64,000 nt of DNA from the NCBI RefSeq assembly GCF_003018235.1, contig NZ_CP027437.1; one strand, given 5' to 3'. Positions 1-43,254 of the stretch are shown in pieces. The stretch comes from Escherichia coli. GTDB lineage: Bacteria > Pseudomonadota > Gammaproteobacteria > Enterobacterales > Enterobacteriaceae. Position numbers and translations under genes: made by a program. The notes below the pieces were generated by a model. That model was not told where the DNA came from. It ran no database searches and saw nothing but the letters and a program-made list of their open reading frames with translations. Numbering within the stretch: the stretch's first letter is position 1; each line of letters starts with the position of its first letter.

Positions 1-1007
1 AAGTTGCCCGCCAGCGCGCGGTGTTTACCGATCACATTACCATGATGGATGCGGTGAACGCCGAAGAAGTGGTGTGCATTGAAACCGGGCAGGCCTTTCG
101 TGACCATTTCGGCGGCCCTTACGCGGTGATCCACCGGGTTGATATTCACGCCTCGGTGTGGGAAGCGGTACTGACGCATCCGGACGTGGAATATCACACC
201 TCCACCAACGTCGTGGATATTCGCGAGACGGAAGACGATGTCACCGTGTTTGACGATCGCGGCAATAGCTGGACCGGCGATATTCTGATTGGCTGTGACG
301 GCGTGAAGTCAGTGGTGCGCCAGAGCTTATTGGGCGATGCGCCGCGTGTCACCGGACATGTTGTCTACCGTGCGGTTATCGATCGTGCCGATATGCCGGA
401 AGATTTGCGCATTAACGCACCGGTACTGTGGGCGGGGCCACATTGTCACTTGGTGCATTACCCTTTGCGCGGCGGCAAGCAGTATAACCTGGTGGTAACA
501 TTCCACAGCCGCCAGCAGGAAGAGTGGGGCGTGAAGGATGGTAGTAAAGAGGAAGTGCTCTCTTACTTTGAAGGGATTCACCCCCGTCCGCGCCAGATGT
601 TGGATAAACCGACTTCATGGCGACGCTGGTCAACCGCTGACCGTGAACCGGTGGCGAAGTGGGGAACGAAGCGCATAACGCTTGTGGGCGATTCGGCCCA
701 TCCGGTGGCGCAATATATGGCGCAGGGAGCCTGTATGGCGCTGGAAGATGCAGTAACGCTGGGTAAGGCGCTGGCGCAGTGTGAGGGTGATGCGGCGCAG
801 GCCTTTGCGCTGTATGAGTCGGTACGAATTCCGCGCACCGCGCGCATCGTCTGGTCGACCCGTGAAATGGGGCGGGTTTACCACGCCGCAGGGGTAGAAC
901 GCCAGGTACGTAATCTGCTGTGGAAAGGGAAATCGCAGGCAGAATTTTATCGCGGCATGGAGTGGTTGTACGGCTGGAAAGAAGATAACTGTTTGCAACC
1001 ACGCTGA
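1..1007 (+). CDS. FAD-dependent aromatic-ring monooxygenase (salicylate / 3-hydroxybenzoate hydroxylase family), C-terminal portion; 5' end lies outside the window
   Basis: ORF track 21..1007; the same frame stays open back to position 1. Contains the flavoprotein hydroxylase motif VGDSAHPVAQYMAQGACMALEDA (GD-AH...G-G). Not part of the K-12 dusC neighbourhood as I recall it. Confidence 0.75.
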   Translation, partial: VARQRAVFTDHITMMDAVNAEEVVCIETGQAFRDHFGGPYAVIHRVDIHASVWEAVLTHPDVEYHTSTNVVDIRETEDDVTVFDDRGNSWTGDILIGCDGVKSVVRQSLLGDAPRVTGHVVYRAVIDRADMPEDLRINAPVLWAGPHCHLVHYPLRGGKQYNLVVTFHSRQQEEWGVKDGSKEEVLSYFEGIHPRPRQMLDKPTSWRRWSTADREPVAKWGTKRITLVGDSAHPVAQYMAQGACMALEDAVTLGKALAQCEGDAAQAFALYESVRIPRTARIVWSTREMGRVYHAAGVERQVRNLLWKGKSQAEFYRGMEWLYGWKEDNCLQPR

Positions 1008-1034
1008 GCACTTCTTCACCCAATCAGGCGCACG

Positions 1035-1080
1035 GGCGGTCCCCTCGCCCCTTCGGGAGAGGGTTAGGGTGAGGGTAAAA
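1035..1080. repeat. G/C-tract imperfect palindrome (cccctcgcccc-ttc-gggagaggg ... gggtgaggg)
   Basis: Read directly from sequence; resembles small GC-rich intergenic palindromes of enterobacteria. Family assignment not possible without a search. Confidence 0.3.
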
Positions 1081-1125
1081 ATCTTGCCCGAATTAATCAG
1101 TAAGTCAGTTTGTCTGCAAACACAG

Positions 1126-1154
1126 GAGGCGCTAACATAGCGCCTCATTTTTTT
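1126..1154 (+). terminator. Intrinsic terminator-like hairpin: perfect 8-bp stem gaggcgct/agcgcctc, loop aacat, followed by T7
   Basis: Seen in sequence; lies downstream of the monooxygenase gene and only about 12 nt upstream of the dusC start codon. Confidence 0.6.
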
Positions 1155-1166
1155 GCGGGTGATGAT

Positions 1167-2117
1167 ATGCGTGTGTTACTGGCACCGATGGAGGGAGTGC
1201 TTGACTCTCTGGTGCGTGAATTGCTGACCGAAGTTAACGACTACGATCTGTGCATCACCGAGTTCGTCCGCGTGGTGGATCAACTGCTGCCGGTAAAAGT
1301 CTTTCATCGCATTTGCCCTGAGCTACAAAACGCCAGCCGGACACCATCCGGTACGCTGGTGCGCGTGCAGTTGTTGGGTCAGTTCCCACAATGGCTGGCA
1401 GAGAACGCCGCCCGTGCGGTGGAATTAGGTTCCTGGGGCGTGGATCTCAATTGCGGCTGCCCGTCGAAAACGGTCAACGGCAGCGGTGGTGGGGCAACGT
1501 TACTCAAAGATCCTGAACTCATCTACCAGGGTGCAAAAGCGATGCGCGAAGCTGTACCGGCGCATTTGCCCGTCAGCGTGAAAGTGCGTCTGGGCTGGGA
1601 CAGCGGTGAGAAGAAATTTGAAATCGCCGATGCGGTTCAACAGGCTGGTGCTACGGAGCTGGTGGTGCATGGACGGACAAAAGAGCAGGGTTACCGCGCG
1701 GAGCATATTGACTGGCAGGCGATTGGCGAGATTCGCCAGCGGCTGAATATTCCGGTGATTGCCAACGGCGAAATCTGGGACTGGCAGAGCGCGCAACAAT
1801 GCATTGCGATCAGCGGCTGCGACGCAGTGATGATTGGTCGCGGGGCGCTCAATATTCCCAACCTGAGCCGGGTAGTAAAATATAACGAACCGCGAATGCC
1901 GTGGCCGGAGGTGGTTGCTTTGCTGCAAAAATATACCCGTCTGGAAAAGCAGGGCGATACCGGGTTATATCACGTAGCGCGGATTAAACAGTGGTTGAGT
2001 TATTTGCGTAAAGAATACGATGAAGCAACGGAATTATTTCAGCATGTTCGGGTGTTGAATAATTCCCCTGATATTGCAAGGGCTATTCAGGCAATTGATA
2101 TCGATAAGCTGCGATAA
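1167..2117 (+). CDS. dusC: tRNA-dihydrouridine synthase C
   Basis: ORF 1110..2117; start chosen at ATG 1167 ([20 protein letters not shown]...), matching the remembered DusC N-terminus; Dus-family TIM barrel (NCGCP motif). Confidence 0.93.
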
Positions 2118-2219
2118 TAGTGGAATCGCAGTTTATCAGAGACAATGAATCGCTTATTCAGCGTCATCATCTTGTTGCGCTCCTTTCATGAGCTAAGCCA
2201 CATATTGCCACTGGCGCAA

Positions 2220-2420
2220 GGAGCGCGCAGGGGGAGGACAATCGCCTCCTCCCCCTGCCCCCCCGGGCTCTGGCGAACAAAATCGCCGCTGCGCGGTACC
2301 TTCAGCTTATCCCCTTCGGCTACCGGGTCGGGCGCGAGGAAACGTCCTTGTAAGACGCGCCCTCAGCCCACATCCATGTGGGCTGCCCCGGCCTTCGGGG
2401 AACGCTTCAGCGATTTTGAC
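2220..2420. other. GC-rich structured intergenic element with several hairpins (perfect 12-bp stem gcagggggagga/tcctccccctgc at 2226-2256; 10-bp stem cagcccacat/atgtgggctg at about 2354-2377)
   Basis: Seen in sequence. The 107-aa ORF 2145..2468 across it has no convincing RBS and is probably not coding. Confidence 0.3.
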
Positions 2421-2504
2421 GCCACCAACACCGGAGCTGTTTGCAAATCAAGTACACAAAATATCTAGTTCCTGACCTGACAACTTATATGCCATATCTG
2501 ATTT

Positions 2505-2588
2505 TTAAAATATCATCTTAAATACGCCAGTCACCACCAGTAGCCCAATCAGGAAAATAATCAATACAGCCCAGAGTATAATTTTCAT
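2505..2588 (-). CDS. yohP: Small hydrophobic membrane peptide YohP (27 aa, MKIILWAVLIIFLIGLLVVTGVFKMIF)
   Basis: Translated by hand from the minus strand (ATG complement at 2586-2588, TAA complement at 2505-2507); below the 60-aa cutoff of the ORF track; matches the remembered K-12 small protein. Confidence 0.8.
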   Translation of the reverse strand: MKIILWAVLIIFLIGLLVVTGVFKMIF

Positions 2589-2811
2589 TGGCGTTCCTTT
2601 ATTTGTGAGTGCTGAATAAGTATAGGAAAAAACGAAGCCCTTTGCCGTTATCCATAAACGATTAAGATAAATCGGAAGATATCATTCACTTAGTGTATAT
2701 TTTTCTGGATATGTCGTTTTATTGCTACTGATGTATTGCCACGCGGAACTAAAAAATATATCGCAACACACGGTAATCTCCGCGCACCTTTTCTTACCTG
2801 ATTATTCCCCC

Positions 2812-4248
2812 ATGAATCGTGATTCCTTTTATCCAGCCATCGCCTGTTTTCCGCTGTTACTGATGCTGACCGGGTGTGCGCCTATGCATGAAACCCGCCA
2901 GGCGTTAAGCCAGCAAACGCCCGCTGCACAAGTTGACACCGCATTACCCACGGCGCTGAAAAATGGTTGGCCAGACAGCCAATGGTGGCTGGAGTATCAC
3001 GATAATCAACTCACTTCATTAATTAACAATGCACTACAGAACGCACCGGATATGCAGGTGGCTGAACAGCGCATTCAGCTAGCTGAAGCCCAGGCGAAGG
3101 CAATTGCCACTCAGGATGGTCCGCAGATCGACTTTTCTGCGGATATGGAGCGGCAAAAAATGTCGGCAGAAGGGCTAATGGGGCCGTTTGCTCTGAACGA
3201 TCCGGCCGCAGGTACGACCGGTCCGTGGTACACCAACGGAACTTTTGGCTTAACGGCGGGCTGGCATCTCGATATCTGGGGAAAGAATCGGGCGGAGGTT
3301 ACTGCCCGCCTGGGTACGGTTAAAGCACGGGCGGCGGAACGCGAGCAAACCCGCCAATTGCTGGCTGGCAGCGTAGCCCGCCTGTACTGGGAGTGGCAAA
3401 CCCAGGCGGCGTTAAACACGGTCTTGCAGCAAATAGAAAAAGAGCAGAACACCATTATCGCGACCGATCGTCAGCTATATCAGAACGGGATTACTTCTTC
3501 AGTTGAAGGTGTGGAAACCGATATTAATGCCAGCAAAACCCGGCAGCAGCTCAACGATGTCGCGGGGAAAATGAAAATTATTGAGGCACGGTTAAGCGCA
3601 CTTACAAATCACCAGACAAAGTCATTGAAGCTTAAACCGGTCGCGTTGCCGAAAGTGGCAAGCCAGCTTCCTGATGAACTGGGGTACTCCTTACTGGCCC
3701 GGCGGGCAGATTTGCAGGCGGCGCACTGGTACGTTGAGTCATCGCTAAGCACTATTGATGCGGCAAAAGCGGCATTTTATCCTGACATCAACCTGATGGC
3801 CTTCCTGCAACAGGATGCGTTGCACTTAAGCGATCTGTTCCGTCATTCCGCGCAGCAAATGGGCGTTACGGCAGGCCTGACGCTACCCATTTTCGATAGT
3901 GGTCGTCTTAACGCCAATCTCGATATCGCAAAAGCCGAAAGCAACTTGTCTATCGCCAGCTACAACAAAGCGGTGGTTGAAGCGGTGAATGACGTGGCGC
4001 GGGCAGCCAGTCAGGTTCAGACACTGGCGGAGAAAAACCAGCATCAGGCGCAAATTGAGCGCGATGCCTTGCGTGTGGTAGGTCTTGCGCAGGCCCGCTT
4101 TAACGCGGGCATCATTGCTGGTTCCCGCGTCAGCGAAGCCAGAATCCCCGCGCTGCGTGAGCGGGCCAATGGCCTGTTATTGCAAGGGCAGTGGCTGGAT
4201 GCCTCCATTCAACTCACTGGTGCGTTGGGCGGGGGTTACAAACGCTGA
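2812..4248 (+). CDS. mdtQ: Outer-membrane efflux lipoprotein (OMF/NodT family); appears intact here
   Basis: ORF 2722..4248; start chosen at ATG 2812 (MNRDSFYPAIACFPLLLMLTGCAP) giving a lipobox LTGC; uninterrupted 478 codons. Confidence 0.85.
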   Translation: MNRDSFYPAIACFPLLLMLTGCAPMHETRQALSQQTPAAQVDTALPTALKNGWPDSQWWLEYHDNQLTSLINNALQNAPDMQVAEQRIQLAEAQAKAIATQDGPQIDFSADMERQKMSAEGLMGPFALNDPAAGTTGPWYTNGTFGLTAGWHLDIWGKNRAEVTARLGTVKARAAEREQTRQLLAGSVARLYWEWQTQAALNTVLQQIEKEQNTIIATDRQLYQNGITSSVEGVETDINASKTRQQLNDVAGKMKIIEARLSALTNHQTKSLKLKPVALPKVASQLPDELGYSLLARRADLQAAHWYVESSLSTIDAAKAAFYPDINLMAFLQQDALHLSDLFRHSAQQMGVTAGLTLPIFDSGRLNANLDIAKAESNLSIASYNKAVVEAVNDVARAASQVQTLAEKNQHQAQIERDALRVVGLAQARFNAGIIAGSRVSEARIPALRERANGLLLQGQWLDASIQLTGALGGGYKR

Positions 4249-4300
4249 TGATATGTGACTTCTATACTTAACGTTTATTCAGCGTTAAGTGGAGAACTCG

Positions 4301-5062
4301 ATGGCACAGGTAGCGATTATTACCGCCTCCGATTCGGGGATCGGCAAAGAGTGCGCGTTATTACTGGCGCAGCAAGGGTTTGATATTGGCATTACCTGGC
4401 ACTCAGATGAAGAAGGGGCAAAAGATACCGCGCGTGAGGTAGTTAGCCACGGCGTACGTGCGGAGATTGTGCAGCTGGATCTCGGTAAACTGCCAGAAGG
4501 TGCGCAGGCGCTGGAGAAACTCATTCAACGGCTGGGGCGTATTGATGTGCTGGTGAATAATGCTGGCGCAATGACCAAAGCGCCGTTTCTTGATATGGCT
4601 TTCGATGAGTGGCGCAAGATTTTTACCGTTGATGTCGATGGTGCATTTTTATGCTCACAAATTGCGGCCCGCCAGATGGTGAAACAAGGGCAGGGCGGTC
4701 GCATCATCAACATTACGTCGGTACATGAACATACGCCGCTGCCGGATGCCAGCGGCTACACAGCCGCTAAACATGCGCTCGGTGGGTTAACCAAAGCGAT
4801 GGCGCTGGAGCTGGTCAGGCATAAGATTTTGGTGAACGCAGTCGCGCCTGGGGCGATCGCCACGCCAATGAATGGCATGGATGACAGCGACGTGAAGCCC
4901 GACGCGGAGCCTTCGATTCCTCTGCGGCGTTTTGGCGCAACGCATGAGATTGCCAGCCTGGTAGCGTGGCTGTGCTCAGAGGGCGCAAATTACACCACCG
5001 GGCAGTCGTTGATAGTGGATGGCGGCTTTATGTTGGCGAATCCGCAGTTCAACCCAGAATAG
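4301..5062 (+). CDS. yohF: Short-chain dehydrogenase/reductase family oxidoreductase
   Basis: ORF 4289..5062; start at ATG 4301 (MAQVAIITASDSGIGKE); Rossmann TASDSGIG and SDR motifs. Confidence 0.9.
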   Translation: MAQVAIITASDSGIGKECALLLAQQGFDIGITWHSDEEGAKDTAREVVSHGVRAEIVQLDLGKLPEGAQALEKLIQRLGRIDVLVNNAGAMTKAPFLDMAFDEWRKIFTVDVDGAFLCSQIAARQMVKQGQGGRIINITSVHEHTPLPDASGYTAAKHALGGLTKAMALELVRHKILVNAVAPGAIATPMNGMDDSDVKPDAEPSIPLRRFGATHEIASLVAWLCSEGANYTTGQSLIVDGGFMLANPQFNPE

Positions 5063-5102
5063 CGCAGTGAGGTGCGTGGTTATTTCAATGGGTAAAATTT
5101 TG

Positions 5103-5124
5103 GTAGGCATGATAAGACGCACAA
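5103..5124. repeat. Left half of a REP palindromic unit (gtaggcatgataagacgc) split by the IS insertion
   Basis: Together with 6562..6576 (gcgtcgcatcaggca) it reconstitutes a REP-type palindrome once the IS and one ACAA copy are removed. Confidence 0.65.
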
Positions 5125-5654
5125 TGAACTGCACCCCAAATGTTGGACATAATCTGACATCTGAAGGTGCAGTTTATGAAACATTCATTTGAAGTAAAAC
5201 TTGCCGCTGTAAATCATTACCTGGCCGGTCATGCAGGCATCATTTCTACGGCAAAACTCTTTCAACTTTCTCACACCAGCCTCTCACACTGGATTAATCT
5301 TTTTCTTCTTCACGGTCCTCGGGCACTGGATTGCAGACACAAGCGTAGCTATTCTCCTGAAGATAAACTTTGCGTGGTTCTTTATGCTCTCGGGCATTCT
5401 GAGTCTCTACCCCGGGTAGCTGCCCGGTTTAACATTCCCAGCCACAACACGGTTAAAAACTGGATAAAAGGCTACCGCAAATCTGGTAATGAGGTCTTTA
5501 TCAGGCGCAGGAAGGAGAAAAGCATGACCCGTTCTGATGATACCCATGAAAACGAGGCAAACATGACGCCGGAAGAGATGAAGAATGAGCTGCGTTATCT
5601 TCGCGCAGAAAATGCATATCTGAAAGCCATGCAGGAGCATCTCCTGGAAAAAAA

Positions 5655-6556
<902 letters not shown>

Positions 6557-21949: not shown

Positions 21950-24232
<2,283 letters not shown>

Positions 24233-30625: not shown

Positions 30626-30849
30626 CACGGCTGGACCCCGTTGCAATTAAGATAATGAGATTTATAATCCAGACCGTTGGGACGTTGCGCCGGATCGAAC
30701 CTATTTCAAGTCCTGGCTACCGGACGGGTGGTGCTGCAGGTGGTGCCCTGATCCGGGGTGCAACATCGTGGTCCAACATACGTAAACCAGTATCGACAGG
30801 CAGTGTAAGGGTAAGGTGCTGGTGTTGCGCTCCTTAATAAGAAGAGCGG

Positions 30850-30939
30850 ATGGACACGCTGACACAAAAGTTAACCGTGCTCATTGCTGTACTGGAGCTA
30901 TTAGTGGCTCTGTTACGGTTGATTGATTTGTTGAAGTAA
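30850..30939 (+). CDS. zorO: Type I toxin, Zor family: 29-aa hydrophobic peptide MDTLTQKLTVLIAVLELLVALLRLIDLLK
   Basis: Hand-translated; SD-like AAGAG upstream; followed by terminator hairpin; sequence matches my memory of ZorO from E. coli O157:H7. Assignment of O versus P to a given copy is arbitrary. Confidence 0.75.
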   Translation: MDTLTQKLTVLIAVLELLVALLRLIDLLK

Positions 30940-30960
30940 CGGGCAAATTGAAACGCATCT

Positions 30961-30989
30961 AAGGGGGAAAACCGCTTCCCCCTTTAATA
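30961..30989 (+). terminator. Intrinsic terminator after the toxin gene (aagggggaaaaccgcttccccctt + T-rich)
   Basis: Seen in sequence. Confidence 0.55.
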
Positions 30990-31134
30990 AAATGATTACT
31001 GTTTTTATTAATTCATCATATAACTCATTTTTATTTATAAATTCATCGATTTTATATTCAACGCACCATTTGACCGGGATGTGAATATTTATGGTGGGCT
31101 ATTGGCAAAAAATATCTGGAAAGTAGATCGCAGA

Positions 31135-31230
31135 AAATAAAAAAACCTGCTGGTGAGGCAGGTTCTTTTATTTACTACAGTGACGCTAACTTGCTGATTG
31201 TGCAACATTTCGTACCAACGAATAAATTAT
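31135..31230 (-). ncRNA. orzP: Candidate Orz-like antitoxin sRNA (copy 2), same terminator as copy 1
   Basis: Terminator at 31135-31164; pairing segment (complement of gcaacatttcgtaccaacgaata) matches the leader of toxin copy 2 (31367-31391) but differs from copy 1. Confidence 0.5.
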
Positions 31231-31457
31231 AACCATATCCACACTCCATTGCAATTCAGTGAGTGAGATTTATAATCCTGCCCGTTGGGAGGTTGTGCCG
31301 GATCGGACCAATTTTAAGTCCTGGCTGCCGGACGGGTGGTGCCGCAGGCGGTGCCCTGATCCGGAGAGCAACGTTTCGTACCAACATACGTAAACCAGTA
31401 TCGACAGGCAGTGTAAGGGTAAGGTGCTGGTGTTGCGCTCCTTAATAAGGAGAGCGG

Positions 31458-31547
31458 ATGGACACGCTGACACAAAAGTTAACCGTGCTCATTGCCGTAC
31501 TGGAGTTATTAGTGGCTCTGTTACGGTTGATTGATTTGTTGAAGTAA
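31458..31547 (+). CDS. zorP: Type I toxin, Zor family (second copy; identical 29-aa peptide with synonymous changes)
   Basis: Hand-translated; differs from copy 1 only at synonymous positions (GCT/GCC, CTA/TTA). Confidence 0.75.
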   Translation: MDTLTQKLTVLIAVLELLVALLRLIDLLK

Positions 31548-31568
31548 CGGGCAAATTGAAACGCATCT

Positions 31569-31597
31569 AAGGGGGAAAAACGCTTCCCCCTTTAATA
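31569..31597 (+). terminator. Intrinsic terminator after toxin copy 2 (aagggggaaaaacgcttccccctt)
   Basis: Seen in sequence. Confidence 0.55.
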
Positions 31598-31656
31598 AAG
31601 CTATACTCGTCATACTTCAAGTTGCATGTGCTGCGACTTGAATTATCTAGAGTATA

Positions 31657-35676: not shown

Positions 35677-38600
35677 TTATTCAAACAGGGCTTCAATATC
35701 GTTAATTAGCTCGCTGGCGGTGATGGCATCGAGTACGGAGAACTGCGCTTCCTGTGTTGAATTACTCCCCCAGCCATAGCTTTCCGCTTTGCCTTCCCAT
35801 AGCCACAGCTTGCTTAAGAGCTGCTCAGCGCTAAGTTCGGCTGGTGACATACCCACCGCAAAACCTTCGTCGATTTCCATGATTAACGACCAGCGACCGA
35901 GAGGTTTGATCATCCAGCCGATCCAGCCTCCATCCTGCGGGGTGCCCTTTATCCAGCCTTTATTCGCCAGCCCCATTACCCGACCGCTCGGGCATTTTCT
36001 GCCTGCCCAGCGGGTCAGTTCGCTGGCATTGCGCTCGGTTTCTGTCAGGGCGTAACTGTTACGGTCGAGCTGGCGGAACGGCGGTAGCAGTTCGTAGTCG
36101 GCAAAAAGCTGCCCAAATGCGGCGGCATCCGTCGGTGATATTTCCAGAACGTGAGGAATACCAACAGAGATATCGCCTTCCGGCAGGGTGAAAAGATCAT
36201 CGTCAGCGGTGCTGTAGCTGTTATCTTCCGCTACCCGGAAACAGGCCAGTAGCTGGTTGTCGGCGCTATAAACGCCCCAAATCAGACGGCGGGTTAAGTG
36301 GCGAACCAGCGGATGCACAACCAGGAAGAGTTGGAAGTTTTCCGGCGACCAGCGGCGGCGCAGGCACATGGCGGATTCAAGCCTTGCCACCTGCTGGGCG
36401 GCGACGGTACGCGCATCTTTTTTCAGCAGTTTGTAGCGGTTAACAGCATCGTTCGCCTGTGATTCATCATCGCTTTTGTTTGGTTTGGGCAGGTCTTTCA
36501 GACGGCTGCCGGAAGCGTCACGCACAAACGGTTTTAAGGTTTCATCAAAGCTGACGGTGAACTGGCGTGGGCCGAAATCCAGCAGCAACGAACCGTTATC
36601 ATCCAGACCGAGATCTGGTGCTAACTGATCTTCAAGCTCCGCCACCGTGAGTTCGCGACTTTCAGCAATGTCGGCAATTTTTTCTTTCGCCCGCTCCTGT
36701 AAAGCTTTGAATTTCAGTTTCTGAGCAATGCCGTTAAGCTGCATCAGAGCGATATCACTACCGATAGCGGCGAGGATATCAAGCCCGACGGTGGCGCGTT
36801 TATGCTGGGATTCACCAGGCCAGGCGCGTATTAATGGCGTCAGTTTGCGGGCGGTGTCATCGTTACCAAGAACGCCTAACGCAGCGAACGCCCAACTCTC
36901 TTTCGACGGCGCGCCCGCAGTCAGCCAGGCGGTAAACAGATCCCAGGCAAATTCAGCCAGTGAGTCGGCGGTACAGGCATCTTTCACCTGCAATAATCCC
37001 GGATACAGTGCCTCTTCCTGAGGGAAGCGGAGCATTTCACCGAGGTGCTGGAGTGCGCTATCGGGCAGTGATTGGGCGTTTGCTTTTAATACCGGGCGCG
37101 TCCAGAGCGATGGCTGATAAAAGGCCGGAAGAGTGGGGATTTTTGTCGGGTGATTATCTAAGGGATCGAGCGCAAGCAGAGCGTTCATCGCGTCTGTTAC
37201 TTCCGGCTGGTTATAACGCCGGGCGATTTCTTGCAGTAATGGCTGATGACCGTTTTCGCTAAGCATACGCAAGGCAGCGCGGGCGTTATCCTGTGCTTCA
37301 CCGGCTTTGCCGAGCGCGGCAGGCAGCAGGCCGGTAATGGCGTGTTCCGGGTATTTCAGCAGCCAGCTACGGGCGTCTTGTCGTAGGGTTTTGAGTTTGT
37401 TGAAGGCGCGGGCAATGAATGGAGCCAATTCGACAGCCGCGAAATATTGTGCCACGGGAAGAGCTTCCTGCGGATAGCGAGATGCTGAGTGGATAAAACC
37501 TGTTAAACCAGCAAGTCGAAGATGCAACATTACTTGTTTTGCACCTGTATGTGGTTCTTTACTAAGGATATTCCACATCTCAATAGCTTTATTTATGGGT
37601 AAAACATGGAGTGAAGAAAGCTTCCATTCGCCCTGATAAGGGGCGTTATAGGACTTAAAAGCATCGATCAAAGTTAAATAATCTTCACGCTGCCAAGCAT
37701 CCAACGCTATTTCTGGAATATCAATATAGCCTCTATGTTTGTTCCAATCCCAGCGGTCGAATCCCAGGGAATTCAGAAAACCTTTTTCTCCCTCTGCTTG
37801 CTGACGAGGTTGCCAATTATGCTGCACTTGAAGTCTTTTGCTTTTTGTTTCATTTATTGTACAGAAAGATTCCAGGGGTAATGGTGCTAAATCCAGCACT
37901 GGAATCGGCGATTTTTTCTTTTTAGCCTGCCACGGCGGTGAGACTAATACGGCAGGCAGCATATCGGCGTTCGCATAAACTGAAGGTTGTGTTAGTTGTT
38001 GCTGGCATGACTTAAGAACGGTAACTGTCGGGGCAGATAGCCAGGAGATCACCCCTTCTACTAATGTTGGTTGTGAGATAAGCATCGTCATTAGCATCAT
38101 GCGCCAGCGCTTTTCATCTTTTTGTGCCAGAAGTTCTGCTAATGCCGCCAGCGCTGCATGTGGAAAGCGAACGAAAGCCTTTGTCATGCGATCGTGGCAA
38201 CGCTTTCCCTGCTCACTTGCATGGATAAGTAGTGTAAGTGCTTGCGGGTGGTTGATATGCATCAACACTTCCCCACATGTGTCACCAGCAGCGTAAGGGG
38301 CAAAACGGGCCAACGCAGCGACACCTTGCTCCTTGAGTACTGTCGCACACCAGATTTTACCGCCGTAATAATCATCAAATACCTGCCCTGGCTGTCCTGG
38401 ATAGTATTACCCCAGTTCTGCCAATACCTGCTCGTCGGTGGTCGTCAGTTTTAGCCATTCCAGCGCATATACCCCTTTTTGTCCGCAAAGATGTCTGGCA
38501 ATCTCATGAGCTACTTCTGGTTTTTCCGGCAACAATAGTGCGACCAGCGGCTGGTTCCAGGCGGGCATGTTTCCGAGAGCGGCAATCAGTTTGTCGGCGC

Positions 38601-39435
38601 AGCGCTGCCATACATCGTCATTTGCAAGTGAGAGATGCTTACGCAGGCGCATTTCAACCGAAGCGAAGCGTGACAGATAGTCAGGCTGCTTGTTATCCGG
38701 GGTAAAAGTAATGAGGTGGGCATCATAATTCCAGTCAAATCGGATGAATTGCAATGCGATGACAACCTCAGTGGCATATTCCAGACCACCTTCCTGGACA
38801 ATTTGATCCATTAACTCTTCGTGATCGTTACGATTGAAGCCTTGCTCCAGCGCAACCAGTACCGCCAGAACCATCGGTAGTAGTGTGGTGCTAATCGGCG
38901 AGTCGATAAGGCCCACTGCTTGTGTAATCGCCTGCTGCCAGTCCAGTGAACAGGTGCTGTAATTGAAGGTGATCACCTTTTTAAAACGCCGGTGAGTATT
39001 CGCGGCGACGGAGCGTAGCAGGGTTAATTCATTCTCCTTTGGCACAGGATCGCCAGGCCAGCGTCGATGACTTAGTGTGGTTGGCGCAACCTCTGTCGGT
39101 AAAATGATTTGGGCGTCGTCTGCCAGCCAGGGGAGGTGGTCTCCAGTCAATGCTGGTTTGTCTTGTGGCAAAGGGGCTATTTCAGGGCATTCGATAACCT
39201 GGGTGGGTACAGATGTCGGTGTCATCACGGATACTTCTTCTACGTAGCCCTTTTTTGTTTTCTCCGCAATCAGCTTCAGTTCCGCTTTTTCCGCCGCCGC
39301 AGTATCTGCAAAGCTTTTTACCTGACTTTGCCCGTTAGTGCCAACTTTACCCCAGGTTATATGCAGTTCGTTTCTCTGCTGTTCCACCGCCCAGAATTTA
39401 TGTGATTTTTCGTCCTGATAAATATAGGTTTTCAT
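35677..39435 (-). pseudogene. molR/yehI-family paralog with N-terminal WGR domain, interrupted by a single in-frame TAA (complement of 38407-38409)
   Basis: ORFs 38407..39435 (342 aa) and 35677..38313 (878 aa) are in the same frame with no other stop between them; about 1252 codons if read through. Confidence 0.7.
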
Positions 39436-39447
39436 TGCTAAATCCTT

Positions 39448-42400
39448 TTAATCAAACAGTGATTCAATGTCGTTAATCAGCTCGCTGGCGGTGATGTCGT
39501 CGAGCACGGAGAAAGTGGGTGAGGATTGTTTACCATAGCGATCATAAGGGGCGGTGATTTTTACGCTTTCGACAGGCAGCAGGTCGCTATACCCCGTTTC
39601 GCCATAAATTAATGAAAAAGGTTCTGTTTCAAGTTCGAGAGCACCATAAGGGGTAAATTTGCGCATCGCATAGACGCTGCCGCTTTCTTCCAGACGTTGC
39701 CAGCCTCTGCGTTCCAGCCCGACAATGCGTCCGGCCTGGCAGAGACGTCCGTTCCAGCGTGACAATTCATGGACATTACGTTCGTTATCAGCAAGGTGGT
39801 AACTACCACGTTCGAGCTGTTGGAAAGGGGGAAGCAGTTCGTAATCAACGTAAATTTGCCTGAATGCAGCGGCGGATTCAGGGGGGATTTCCAGCACATG
39901 CGGTATACCGATGTTTCCTGCTGGCAGCGTGAATAACTCATCCTGCGCATCGCTGTAAGTGCTGTCTTCTGCCACGCGAAAACAGGTGATAAGAGCGTTT
40001 TCATCGTTATAAACCCCCCATAACAGCCGTCGGGTTAAGTGACGTACCAGCGGATGCTCCACCAGAAACAGGCGGAACTGCTCTGCCGTCCAGCGTCTGC
40101 GCTGGCACATAGCCTGTTCCAGACGATCAATCTGCTGGCTGGCTATGGCGCGTACATCTTTTTTCAACTGTTTGAAGAGATTAACCGCGTCAGTTGCCTG
40201 AGTTTTTTCATCGCTCTGGTTTGGTTTGGGCAAATCTTTCAGGACTTTGCCGTTTGCGTCGCGCACTACAGGTTTTAAAGTTTCGTTAAAACCAACGGTA
40301 AATTGACGTGGGCCGAAATCCAGTGTCAGCGAGCCACTGCTATCAAGCCCTAAATCCGGTGCCAGGCGGTCTTCCAGTTCAGCCATAGTCAGCCCACGGT
40401 TTTCAGCGACCATGTTGATTTTGTCGCTGGCATGTTCCTGCAATGCGGCGAATTTAATTTTTTGCGCAATGCCATTAAGCAGCATCAGCGCAATATCACT
40501 ACCGATACTGGCTAACACATCCAGCCCGTAAACCGCGCGTTTATGCTGGGATTCACCCGGCCAGGCGCGGATGAGCGGGGTTAGTTTACGCGCGGTGTCG
40601 TCATTGCCTAGAATCCCCAGCGAGGTAAATGCCCAGTTTTCTTTTGCGGGTGCGCCAGCTTCTGTCCATGCCGTGTAGAGATCCCAGCCAAAGTCAGCCA
40701 GTGATTCGCGGGTGAAGGTCTCTTTGATGATCGCCAGCCCAGCGTAGGAGGTAATGTCGCGTGGAAAGCTCAACATTGTGCCGAGGTGGCGCATAGCGTC
40801 ATCTGGCAGAGGCAGGTTGTTACTTTTAAGCCGAGGTCTGTGCCATAAGGTGAACTGATAAAAGCCGGGCAGTGGGGCGATTTTTGCAGGATATTCTTCC
40901 AGTGGGTCGCTATCAAATAATGTTGCCAGCGCAGCTAAAACATCAGGTTGATTATATCCTTGGGCGATTTCCTCAATCGTTTCTCGCTGGTTTAATTTCA
41001 CTAGCAGGAGGAGTGCCTGGCGGGAATATTCCCGATTTTGGCACGGTTTGCCCAGCGCCAAAGGTAGTAGCCCGGCGGCGGCATGGCGCGGGTTATTTGC
41101 CAGCCAATTAACGGCATCCTTGTAACCCATTTTTTTCTGTAACCGCTGCGCCATTGGTAAGGCTAGGTCACTGGCCCCAATAAAGAGGGTGAATATCCAC
41201 AGTCGTTGATGATCTCGTTGCAAGCAGGTCATAAACGCAGGAATGGCCGTACTGCCAAAAATCCCCAGAATCTCTTTCTCACCTGAATATCGCTCCTCAA
41301 TGATTATTTGGTTGAGAAATGAAATCGCCTGTTGTCCCGGTAAGTAACAAAGCGCAGATAGATTCCAGCTTTTGTTGGCATTGTTGTGATATTTCGCAAA
41401 CTCAACTTTTAGTGCTGGAAAATCAAAGCGCAACAAGGCATCAACAGCGCTTTGCGGTATATATTTTTTTTCATGTAAGTCATCTTCGCAATGCAGCCAT
41501 TCATTAAAACCTAATTGCCAAAGGATTTGTTGTTCTGGTGTAAAAGGAATGAAAGATGTCTCCCAGCTTTCTTTTTCAATTAGTGGCAGTTCGGTAAATA
41601 AGGTTTGCTGTGATGCCTGATATTGCGCGATTTCATAGAATCTGGATATGTCAGTATGACTGATTAACTCTGTAATTCCTGGTGTGATATCCGTGACGGC
41701 AGGGATGGGAAGTACCGGCAAATCAAATACGGGTATTACATTCTTTTTCTTATTTATTACCCACGGTGGAGCGACAAACAGCTCTGGCAACATATCCGCA
41801 GTGGCATATTCACATTCTTCAGCGACTGACTGCGGACGACATTCAGATAAGATGCCAGCGGCTTTGGCATTAACCCAGGGAATGACGTCGCATACTAACT
41901 CTGGCGTGATGGTAATCAGTTTGATAAGTGCGTTGCGCCACTGTGCATCTTCATGTATTGCCAGCAAAGTTGCATAAGCGGCAATAGCCGCAGCGGGATG
42001 TTTTTGGCAGGCTTTGCTTAAGTATTCCAGGTGCTTTTTCTTGCCATTTACACCGAGGATCAGAATCTGAATCGCATCCGGGTGATTCGTTTTCCATAGC
42101 CATTTGACAAGATTTTCAGTCTCGCTGTTGCGCTCGAAAAGATAAGTGGGATTGTCAGAATGCTCTTCCGTAAACTCAAGAAGGATCTGGCTTACACCCC
42201 GAATTCCATTATTCGCCAGCAACATTGCCAGATAAGCGCGAAAATTACGAAAATCACGATACAACGGTGGGAAGTCGTATTTTTCCACTGTAGTCAGAGC
42301 AGTATCATCGGTTATCACCAGTCTTAACCAGGTCATCGCCGGAACGTTTTGATCTGCATAATGTAGCGCCATAGCATTGGCGATATCCGGGCGTTCAGGG

Positions 42401-43254
42401 ATCAGTAACGCCGCAAAAGGTTGCCGTGCTGGGGATAGCGAGGGAATAGCCGCGAGTACCTTATCTACACAGCGTTGCCACTCATCTTCTGAAGCGAGTG
42501 AAAGATGATGACATAGACGTTGATGCCAGTTCGGTAGCGATTCTGCTTTGAGATCAGGGGGAATGATGGTGGTGACGTCGGCTTTTACTGGTTTATATCT
42601 AAGTTGAAGAGCGAGAAGGGCAATTTCAACGGCACTTTCCAGACCACAGCGAATGACTAAGTCATCGACCAGTTCATCTGCAGAGTAAGAGTTCCAGAAA
42701 CTCCAGAGCAATGCTGCATCAGATTGCACACTCCCTGTCTGTTGATTACCCTGAACTCGCATTTGTAACTCAGCAAAAGCCTGCTGCCAGTTTTCTGGAT
42801 AAGAACGGTAATTGTTGGCGGGATCATATGCTCTGGTGTTATTCGCGATGAGCTGCCATATTTGACCATCTTTGTGCAGATAATTGATCTCTCTGGGGCG
42901 AGAGCGATGAGGAAAAGCAAATCGATTAATATCGTCAGTTAGCCGAATGACCGCATCATCAGCCAGCCAGGGGCGTTGGTTTTTACTCTCAGGGGAAGTT
43001 TCAACTTCAGGAGTGGCTTTGGTAATGGGGGGGATATGCACGTTTGCTGAAGCATTTTCCACATAGCCTTTTTTCGTTTTCTCCGCGATAAGATTCAGTT
43101 TCGCTTTTTCCGCTGCTGCAACATCAGCAAAATTTTTTACCTGGCTTTGCCCTTGGGTACCAACTTTTCCCCAGCTGATATGCAACTCGTTTCCCTGCTG
43201 CTCCACCGCCCAGAATTTATGTGATTTTTCGTCCTGATAGATATAACTCTTCAT
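39448..43254 (-). CDS. molR: Giant WGR-domain protein (1268 aa), molR family; appears intact
   Basis: ORF track; N-terminus MKSYIYQDEKSHKFWAVEQQGNELHISWGKVGTQGQ (WGR-like). The K-12 counterpart is remembered as a pseudogene. Confidence 0.8.
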   Translation of the reverse strand: MKSYIYQDEKSHKFWAVEQQGNELHISWGKVGTQGQSQVKNFADVAAAEKAKLNLIAEKTKKGYVENASANVHIPPITKATPEVETSPESKNQRPWLADDAVIRLTDDINRFAFPHRSRPREINYLHKDGQIWQLIANNTRAYDPANNYRSYPENWQQAFAELQMRVQGNQQTGSVQSDAALLWSFWNSYSADELVDDLVIRCGLESAVEIALLALQLRYKPVKADVTTIIPPDLKAESLPNWHQRLCHHLSLASEDEWQRCVDKVLAAIPSLSPARQPFAALLIPERPDIANAMALHYADQNVPAMTWLRLVITDDTALTTVEKYDFPPLYRDFRNFRAYLAMLLANNGIRGVSQILLEFTEEHSDNPTYLFERNSETENLVKWLWKTNHPDAIQILILGVNGKKKHLEYLSKACQKHPAAAIAAYATLLAIHEDAQWRNALIKLITITPELVCDVIPWVNAKAAGILSECRPQSVAEECEYATADMLPELFVAPPWVINKKKNVIPVFDLPVLPIPAVTDITPGITELISHTDISRFYEIAQYQASQQTLFTELPLIEKESWETSFIPFTPEQQILWQLGFNEWLHCEDDLHEKKYIPQSAVDALLRFDFPALKVEFAKYHNNANKSWNLSALCYLPGQQAISFLNQIIIEERYSGEKEILGIFGSTAIPAFMTCLQRDHQRLWIFTLFIGASDLALPMAQRLQKKMGYKDAVNWLANNPRHAAAGLLPLALGKPCQNREYSRQALLLLVKLNQRETIEEIAQGYNQPDVLAALATLFDSDPLEEYPAKIAPLPGFYQFTLWHRPRLKSNNLPLPDDAMRHLGTMLSFPRDITSYAGLAIIKETFTRESLADFGWDLYTAWTEAGAPAKENWAFTSLGILGNDDTARKLTPLIRAWPGESQHKRAVYGLDVLASIGSDIALMLLNGIAQKIKFAALQEHASDKINMVAENRGLTMAELEDRLAPDLGLDSSGSLTLDFGPRQFTVGFNETLKPVVRDANGKVLKDLPKPNQSDEKTQATDAVNLFKQLKKDVRAIASQQIDRLEQAMCQRRRWTAEQFRLFLVEHPLVRHLTRRLLWGVYNDENALITCFRVAEDSTYSDAQDELFTLPAGNIGIPHVLEIPPESAAAFRQIYVDYELLPPFQQLERGSYHLADNERNVHELSRWNGRLCQAGRIVGLERRGWQRLEESGSVYAMRKFTPYGALELETEPFSLIYGETGYSDLLPVESVKITAPYDRYGKQSSPTFSVLDDITASELINDIESLFD

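Follow-up and report, generated by a model that had tools for sequence, protein, structure and literature searches.

The 3' part of mhbM, encoding a putative 3-hydroxybenzoate 6-hydroxylase, upstream of dusC in an Escherichia coli genome: the end of a probably ancestral operon

The closest described system is the mhb operon of Klebsiella pneumoniae M5a1, which has the organisation mhbRTDHIM and is controlled by MhbR, a LysR-type activator (PMC3572157). For Salmonella, too, metabolism of m-hydroxybenzoate through gentisate has been reported (Goetz and Harmuth, 1992, as cited in PMC3572157). In the 3-hydroxybenzoate 6-hydroxylase (3HB6H) of Rhodococcus jostii, His213 and Tyr217 bind the substrate and direct hydroxylation (PMC5472690); in the Klebsiella enzyme Arg169 is essential, according to the title of a work cited in both PMC5472690 and PMC6043778. 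For E. coli itself, a “salicylate hydroxylase” and a gentisate dioxygenase reaction are among the EHEC-specific entries of metabolic models (PMC3229490), and O157 grown in bovine rumen was found to contain GtdA protein (PMC9135228). The searchable literature yielded no enzymatic or growth data on E. coli MhbM, and nothing specific on the phylogroup distribution of the mhb cluster in E. coli or on growth tests of it. Descriptions already exist of mhbM and its family, and of the operon and pathway to which it belongs; the protein is correctly named in RefSeq.

The window considered here is a stretch of 64,000 nt from E. coli contig NZ_CP027437.1. Its first 1,007 nt are very probably the 3' part of mhbM, the gene for an NADH- and FAD-dependent 3-hydroxybenzoate 6-hydroxylase and the last gene of a probably ancestral operon (Table 1). 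The coding sequence runs past the left window edge: 334 codons are inside (residues 64-397 of 397 aa), while the 63 N-terminal codons, including those for the GGGIGG FAD-binding motif (residues 11-16 of full-length MhbM), lie before the window start. A “328 aa” open reading frame listed at 21-1007 is mechanical, beginning at the first in-frame GTG (nt 21), and is not the true mhbM coding sequence. Every residue of the encoded fragment agrees with WP_000170147.1 (397 aa; 100% identity over residues 64-397), a protein of E. coli O157:H7, among other strains, that RefSeq annotates as 3-hydroxybenzoate 6-monooxygenase. From position 1 to 1166, the window is one base apart from the closest complete genome, a synonymous difference at nt 440. 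When positions 1-25000 were compared by megablast with 5,426 complete E. coli genomes, no genome matched along the full length, the best covering 92%.

Table 1. Features at the left end of the window (positions in nt from the first base of the window).
Feature	Position	Strand	Remarks
mhbM, 3' 84% (3-hydroxybenzoate 6-monooxygenase)	1-1007	+	reading frame 3, open from nt 3 (first complete codon); codons 64-397 at nt 3-1004; stop (TGA) at 1005-1007
Tyr103 codon	120-122	+	mhbM
DG motif (CDGVKS)	294-311	+	class A flavoprotein monooxygenase fingerprint
Arg169 codon	318-320	+	mhbM
His212 codon	447-449	+	mhbM
Tyr216 codon	459-461	+	mhbM
GD motif (GDSAHP)	687-704	+	class A flavoprotein monooxygenase fingerprint
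Gln300 codon	711-713	+	mhbM
Allele-specific segment after the mhbM stop	1014-1126		in the window/O157-type allele; absent from K-12 and from the second native-site allele (L006)
Dispersed GC-rich repeat copy, ~55 bp	1026-1080		median of 16 places per E. coli genome
Intrinsic-terminator-like hairpin, GAGGCGCT-AACAT-AGCGCCTC then ATTTTTTT	1126-1154	+	ends 12 nt before the dusC ATG
Interval with recombination breakpoint	1151-1196		haplotype switch, start of dusC
dusC (tRNA dihydrouridine(16) synthase)	1167-2117	+	core gene, right flank of the mhb cluster

In related complete genomes, a 6.19-kb cluster, whose native site is between yohJ and dusC, ends with mhbM. A divergent LysR regulator gene (mhbR) is followed by mhbT-gtdA(mhbD)-mhbH-maiA(mhbI)-mhbM, encoding the MFS transporter MhbT, a gentisate 1,2-dioxygenase, an FAA-family fumarylpyruvate hydrolase, a zeta-GST isomerase and the hydroxylase. 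The six-gene order was seen in every relative examined; the corresponding DNA of the present genome falls outside the window. The relatives' dioxygenase matches the TIGR02272 gentisate_1_2 equivalog (597.6 bits vs. 442) and the E. coli O157:H7 enzyme whose structure has been solved (2D40, E=2.8e-241), and their maleylacetoacetate/maleylpyruvate isomerase matches the TIGR01262 maiA equivalog (307.7 bits vs. 171).

Among 5,426 complete E. coli genomes, 612 carry mhbM, and 611 of these have at least 80% of the 6.19-kb cluster, the level at which the whole cluster was counted as present; dusC is found in 5,424. The original prediction was of a gene missing from K-12, possibly the last of an accessory aromatic catabolic cluster lying before the window, with ring-cleavage dioxygenase or isomerase genes to be looked for upstream. 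K-12 MG1655 indeed lacks mhbM, its yohJ and dusC being adjacent with 238 bp between them; the position of mhbM at the end of such a cluster agrees with every relative examined and with the 611 genomes, and genes of both kinds were found 5' of mhbM, in relatives. The gene is neither isolated nor universal in E. coli. The word “accessory” fits the cluster as to its presence and absence, but not as to its origin, which looks ancestral: the cluster is syntenic in Salmonella and Klebsiella.

Alignment with K-12 shows 126 bp standing for 6,189 bp. Homology with this and other mhb-less genomes begins at window nt 1127, where the 6.19-kb cluster has its right edge. When the K-12-type junction is probed with 231 bp spanning it, at least 80% of the probe is covered in 4,918 complete E. 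coli genomes, so nearly all E. coli without the cluster have one junction in common. Subtraction puts the cluster at the native site in about 500 genomes and at other places in about 100.

In Salmonella enterica, the six mhb genes are found between yohJ and dusC with order and orientation unchanged, and Klebsiella aerogenes has the six genes at the same site; a Serratia genome has the cluster as well, at another site. Comparison of the six genes of E. coli with those of Salmonella gives identities of 78-82% (nucleotide) and 85-94% (protein), which cannot be told apart from the 74-85% and 80-94%, respectively, of 12 core genes in the flanks. The native site also has a second allele in E. coli (L006; about 95% identical to that of the window), without the 113-bp allele-specific segment; in it the mhbM stop is directly followed by TTTAATCCGCTGACCAT, and exactly this sequence forms the end of the K-12 scar. 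Because the site is shared with Salmonella and Klebsiella, the divergence is like that of the flanks, and TTTAATCCGCTGACCAT stands at the end of the K-12 scar, the common ancestor of Escherichia, Salmonella and Klebsiella most likely already had the operon at the yohJ-dusC site. The K-12 state would then be a loss, since the cluster is syntenic in the other two genera: to judge from these sequences, one old deletion most likely removed the operon and left the 126-bp scar in the allele now found in about 90% of E. coli, K-12 among them. The spacer between yohJ and dusC in K-12 is, most likely, a deletion scar and not the primitive state.

The scar itself lies in the dusC-yohJ spacer (4387-4624 of the K-12 locus retrieved, L003) and contains a perfect inverted repeat with an 11-bp stem, AGAGGGATTGC ... 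GCAATCCCTCT. Most of it has no counterpart in mhb-positive alleles. A BLAST search (word size 11) for remnants of mhb genes inside it gave only chance matches of 12-14 nt, and the sole true piece that scar and mhb locus have in common is 17 nt long and adjoins the mhbM stop in the second allele.

An origin of the native-site cluster as an integrative element was also considered. The annotated records have no mobility gene between yohJ and dusC, and no flanking repeat was seen at the cluster borders on reading the junction sequences, so this candidate was dropped.

From position 1 to 1195, the window is 1-3 nt from the O157-type mhb-positive loci retrieved. From 1196 to 5124, it is 1-1.5% from every mhb-positive locus retrieved, but differs at just 2 nt in about 3.9 kb (3 nt when counted from 1127) from a genome without mhb (L022) that has the K-12-type scar. 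This switch marks a recombination breakpoint at the start of dusC and the edge of the cluster, somewhere between about 1151 and 1196. It shows that alleles with and without mhb are swapped between backgrounds by homologous recombination. Presence and absence of the operon have most likely been shuffled among lineages in this way since the deletion, with the operon also being copied onto IS-flanked islands and plasmids.

Examples of both kinds of copy were found. In an O145 strain (NZ_CP035767.1), the cluster is in an IS-flanked chromosomal island beside remnants of IS66, IS3 and ISEc60; other O145 genomes, and O103 genomes, have this island allele type, with equal match limits. PLSDB contains 12 E. 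coli plasmid records with the cluster and one from Escherichia sp. The plasmid allele is distinct, about 95.5% identical (just 93% in one record). The large E. coli plasmids that carry it are from cattle, pigs and food, and are mostly typed as conjugative. The plasmid examined (NZ_AP042660.1) has, besides the mhb cluster, genes for a heat-stable enterotoxin (sta1) and enterohemolysin (ehxCA); at least one mhb-bearing plasmid is a virulence plasmid.

One way to put these observations together is to regard yohJ|dusC as an old polymorphism with two alleles, mhb and the 126-bp scar, which are selected by niche and moved by recombination, the operon being regained at times from plasmids or islands and the window being one of the recombinants. 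The niche might be, for instance, plant phenolics in herbivore guts, and crossovers would take place at the conserved terminator and the 5' end of dusC. We offer this tentatively, as an account that falls a little short of an even chance of being right.

As another possibility, the cluster could have been acquired horizontally in this lineage, either by homologous recombination through the core flanks or from a plasmid or island copy. The sharp mosaic just described, O157-type up to 1195 and nearly identical to an mhb-negative genome thereafter, would be expected from such an event, and the existence of the island (O145/O103) and plasmid copies points the same way, as does a G+C content of 55% in the cluster against 51-52.5% in the flanks. 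However, the breakpoint is explained equally well if a relative without mhb was the recipient, of the scar allele; and the plasmid copies are a different allele, their identity of only about 95.5% arguing that plasmids were not the source of the copy in the window. Salmonella and Klebsiella, moreover, have the cluster at an identical native site, with identical gene order and orientation, and its divergence matches that of the flanks. Acquisition would in any case be a recent event in a single lineage, and would not conflict with an operon ancestral to the species. It seems unlikely, if far from negligible; the higher G+C and the mobility of the cluster in other contexts leave some room for acquisition over retention. 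Our preferred reading remains that of an operon ancestral at this site, lost by deletion from most E. coli.

The intergenic region between mhbM and dusC (1008-1166) includes the allele-specific segment. The GC-rich repeat within it is the only copy in the window, and appears to resemble boxC. Next comes the terminator-like hairpin, with a 9-bp stem (1126-1146) followed by ATTTTTTT, 20 nt upstream of the dusC ATG. Two stems with T-runs of this pattern were found in this stretch, against 0.3 expected. The hairpin is placed just 5' of dusC, and is probably the end of the mhbTDHIM transcript. It is kept in E. coli without mhb, such as K-12, and a similar form is found in Salmonella. No sigma-70-like promoter was detected between 900 and 1300, and an Rfam scan of 900-2800 gave nothing above noise.

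Other differences from K-12 and related loci were seen further into the window. Between dusC and yohP, a small block of about 280 bp rich in inverted repeats (2157-2433, with GC palindromes) is colinear with O157-type genomes, but has to be inverted to match K-12 and the L006-type strain (~88% identity). The mdtQ gene (2812-4248) is intact, with 478 codons; in K-12 MG1655 it is annotated as a pseudogene. The yohF-yohD spacer contains a 1,432-bp IS3-family element (5125-6556) that neither K-12 nor any related locus retrieved has; among 20 loci encoding exactly the DusC or MdtQ protein of the window, none has the IS insertion after yohF. This element matches an IS1397-family element of NZ_CP026755.1, which is there at bglX-osmF. 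A 1,954-bp IS21-family element (22279-24232), with IstA-like (340 aa) and IstB-like (260 aa) reading frames on the minus strand, splits yehQ; presumably it is IS100-like. K-12 has nothing colinear with about 0.9 kb near yehK (30707-31637), in which there is a diverged second copy (81%) of a 216-bp K-12 segment. The region from 37480 to 43057, about 5.6 kb with two minus-strand reading frames (878 and 1,268 aa), corresponds to about 1.8 kb in K-12 (the yehF/yehH pseudogene region), and is probably the undegraded form of that locus. From there to 51293 (yehF-metG-mrp-yehEDCB in K-12), identity to K-12 is about 90%, compared with about 98% elsewhere.

With a complete cluster before the window, this genome could be expected to encode the following pathway. 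An operon mhbT-mhbD(gtdA)-mhbH-mhbI(maiA)-mhbM would be expressed under the control of MhbR, the divergently transcribed LysR regulator. MhbT would import 3-hydroxybenzoate, and MhbM would convert it to gentisate (2,5-dihydroxybenzoate) using NADH and FAD. By analogy with the enzyme family, binding of the substrate would let NADH reduce the FAD of MhbM, and the reduced flavin would react with O2 to form a C4a-hydroperoxyflavin, which would hydroxylate the ring para to the 3-hydroxyl group. Gentisate 1,2-dioxygenase would then open the ring to give maleylpyruvate, a glutathione-dependent isomerase would convert this to fumarylpyruvate, and the hydrolase would split it into fumarate and pyruvate.

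This pathway presupposes that mhbM is not simply a non-functional remnant, with its own 5' part or the rest of the operon broken or deleted just beyond the window. Such damage does occur: the complete genome of NCTC9100 has mhbM reduced to a 240-bp remnant, and the window itself has two IS insertions relative to K-12 (in the yohF-yohD spacer and inside yehQ). Against this, nearly every genome with mhbM (all but one of the 612) has at least 80% of the whole cluster, and no damage is seen in the 334 codons that the window contains, which differ from the reference by the one synonymous change, so the gene does not have the look of decay. A remnant is therefore improbable here, and the upstream cluster is likely to be intact.

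As to the enzyme, the original prediction had been of a class A flavoprotein monooxygenase, similar to salicylate or 3-hydroxybenzoate hydroxylases. The class is borne out by the DG and GD motifs and by a match to Pfam FAD_binding_3 (PF01494, E=3.5e-14); of the two proposed specificities, the sequence clearly favours the second over the first. Despite its truncation, the protein scores 636.7 bits (E=1.5e-191) against the NCBIfam equivalog for 3-hydroxybenzoate 6-monooxygenase (NF006021, cut-off 459), covering model positions 65-397 of 398. Its score of 96.1 bits against the salicylate 1-monooxygenase model (TIGR03219) is well below the cut-off of 446.35, placing it outside that family. In R. 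jostii numbering, Tyr105, His213, Tyr217, Gln301 and Gln49 are all kept in E. coli MhbM, which also has an Arg at position 169. The E. coli equivalents His212, Tyr216, Tyr103 and Gln300, along with Arg169, are all encoded within the window. Tyr105 and Gln301 are, we assume, the positions mutated in deposited variants of the R. jostii enzyme.

A different aromatic acid as substrate, for example in a salicylate 1- or 5-hydroxylase, is suggested by older names (the “salicylate hydroxylase” reaction of the EHEC metabolic models (PMC3229490), the same term among the database names of several MhbM homologs, and the title of PDB entry 4BJY, “probable salicylate monooxygenase”), but is very improbable indeed in view of the two model scores, the retention of the 3HB6H-specific His213 and Tyr217, the location of mhbM together with mhbT and gentisate pathway genes, as in the Klebsiella mhb operon (PMC3572157), and the fact that 4BJY, whatever its title, is the characterised R. 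jostii 3HB6H (PMC5472690).

What follows for the strain is modest. Going by its gene content, this genome would be among the roughly 11% of E. coli expected to use 3-hydroxybenzoate and gentisate for growth; these phenolic acids of the herbivore gut come from plants and lignin. O157:H7 has the trait as well. The older label of “salicylate hydroxylase” is corrected. Practical value is limited, and no new question is opened.

Compared with known systems, the best match among solved structures is 3HB6H of R. jostii RHA1 (4BJY, 4BJZ, 5HYM), which aligns with MhbM over residues 5-393 (E=2.7e-77) but is only 38.8% identical to it. Arg350 of the R. jostii enzyme, near the phospholipid phosphate, is kept in E. 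coli, while Lys385 is replaced by Arg (PMC5472690). Salicylate 1-monooxygenases of the NahG family have the class A flavoprotein monooxygenase fold (Pfam FAD_binding_3) in common with MhbM, but differ in regiochemistry and substrate, as is reflected in the score far under the cut-off for their model (96 vs. 446 bits). The gentisate pathway of E. coli O157:H7 is represented by the dioxygenase of the relatives' cluster (2D40), whose genes neighbour mhbM outside the window, and that of Salmonella by the syntenic mhb cluster. The nearest counterparts are in Klebsiella. The K. aerogenes ortholog, at the same yohJ|dusC site, is about 90% identical to E. coli MhbM, a comparison made with this ortholog and not with the characterised enzyme of K. 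pneumoniae M5a1. The M5a1 MhbM (EC 1.14.13.24) resembles the E. coli protein in its length of 397 aa and in having Arg at position 169, and the M5a1 mhbRTDHIM operon in having mhbM last, after mhbT-D-H-I, with a divergent LysR regulator (PMC3572157).
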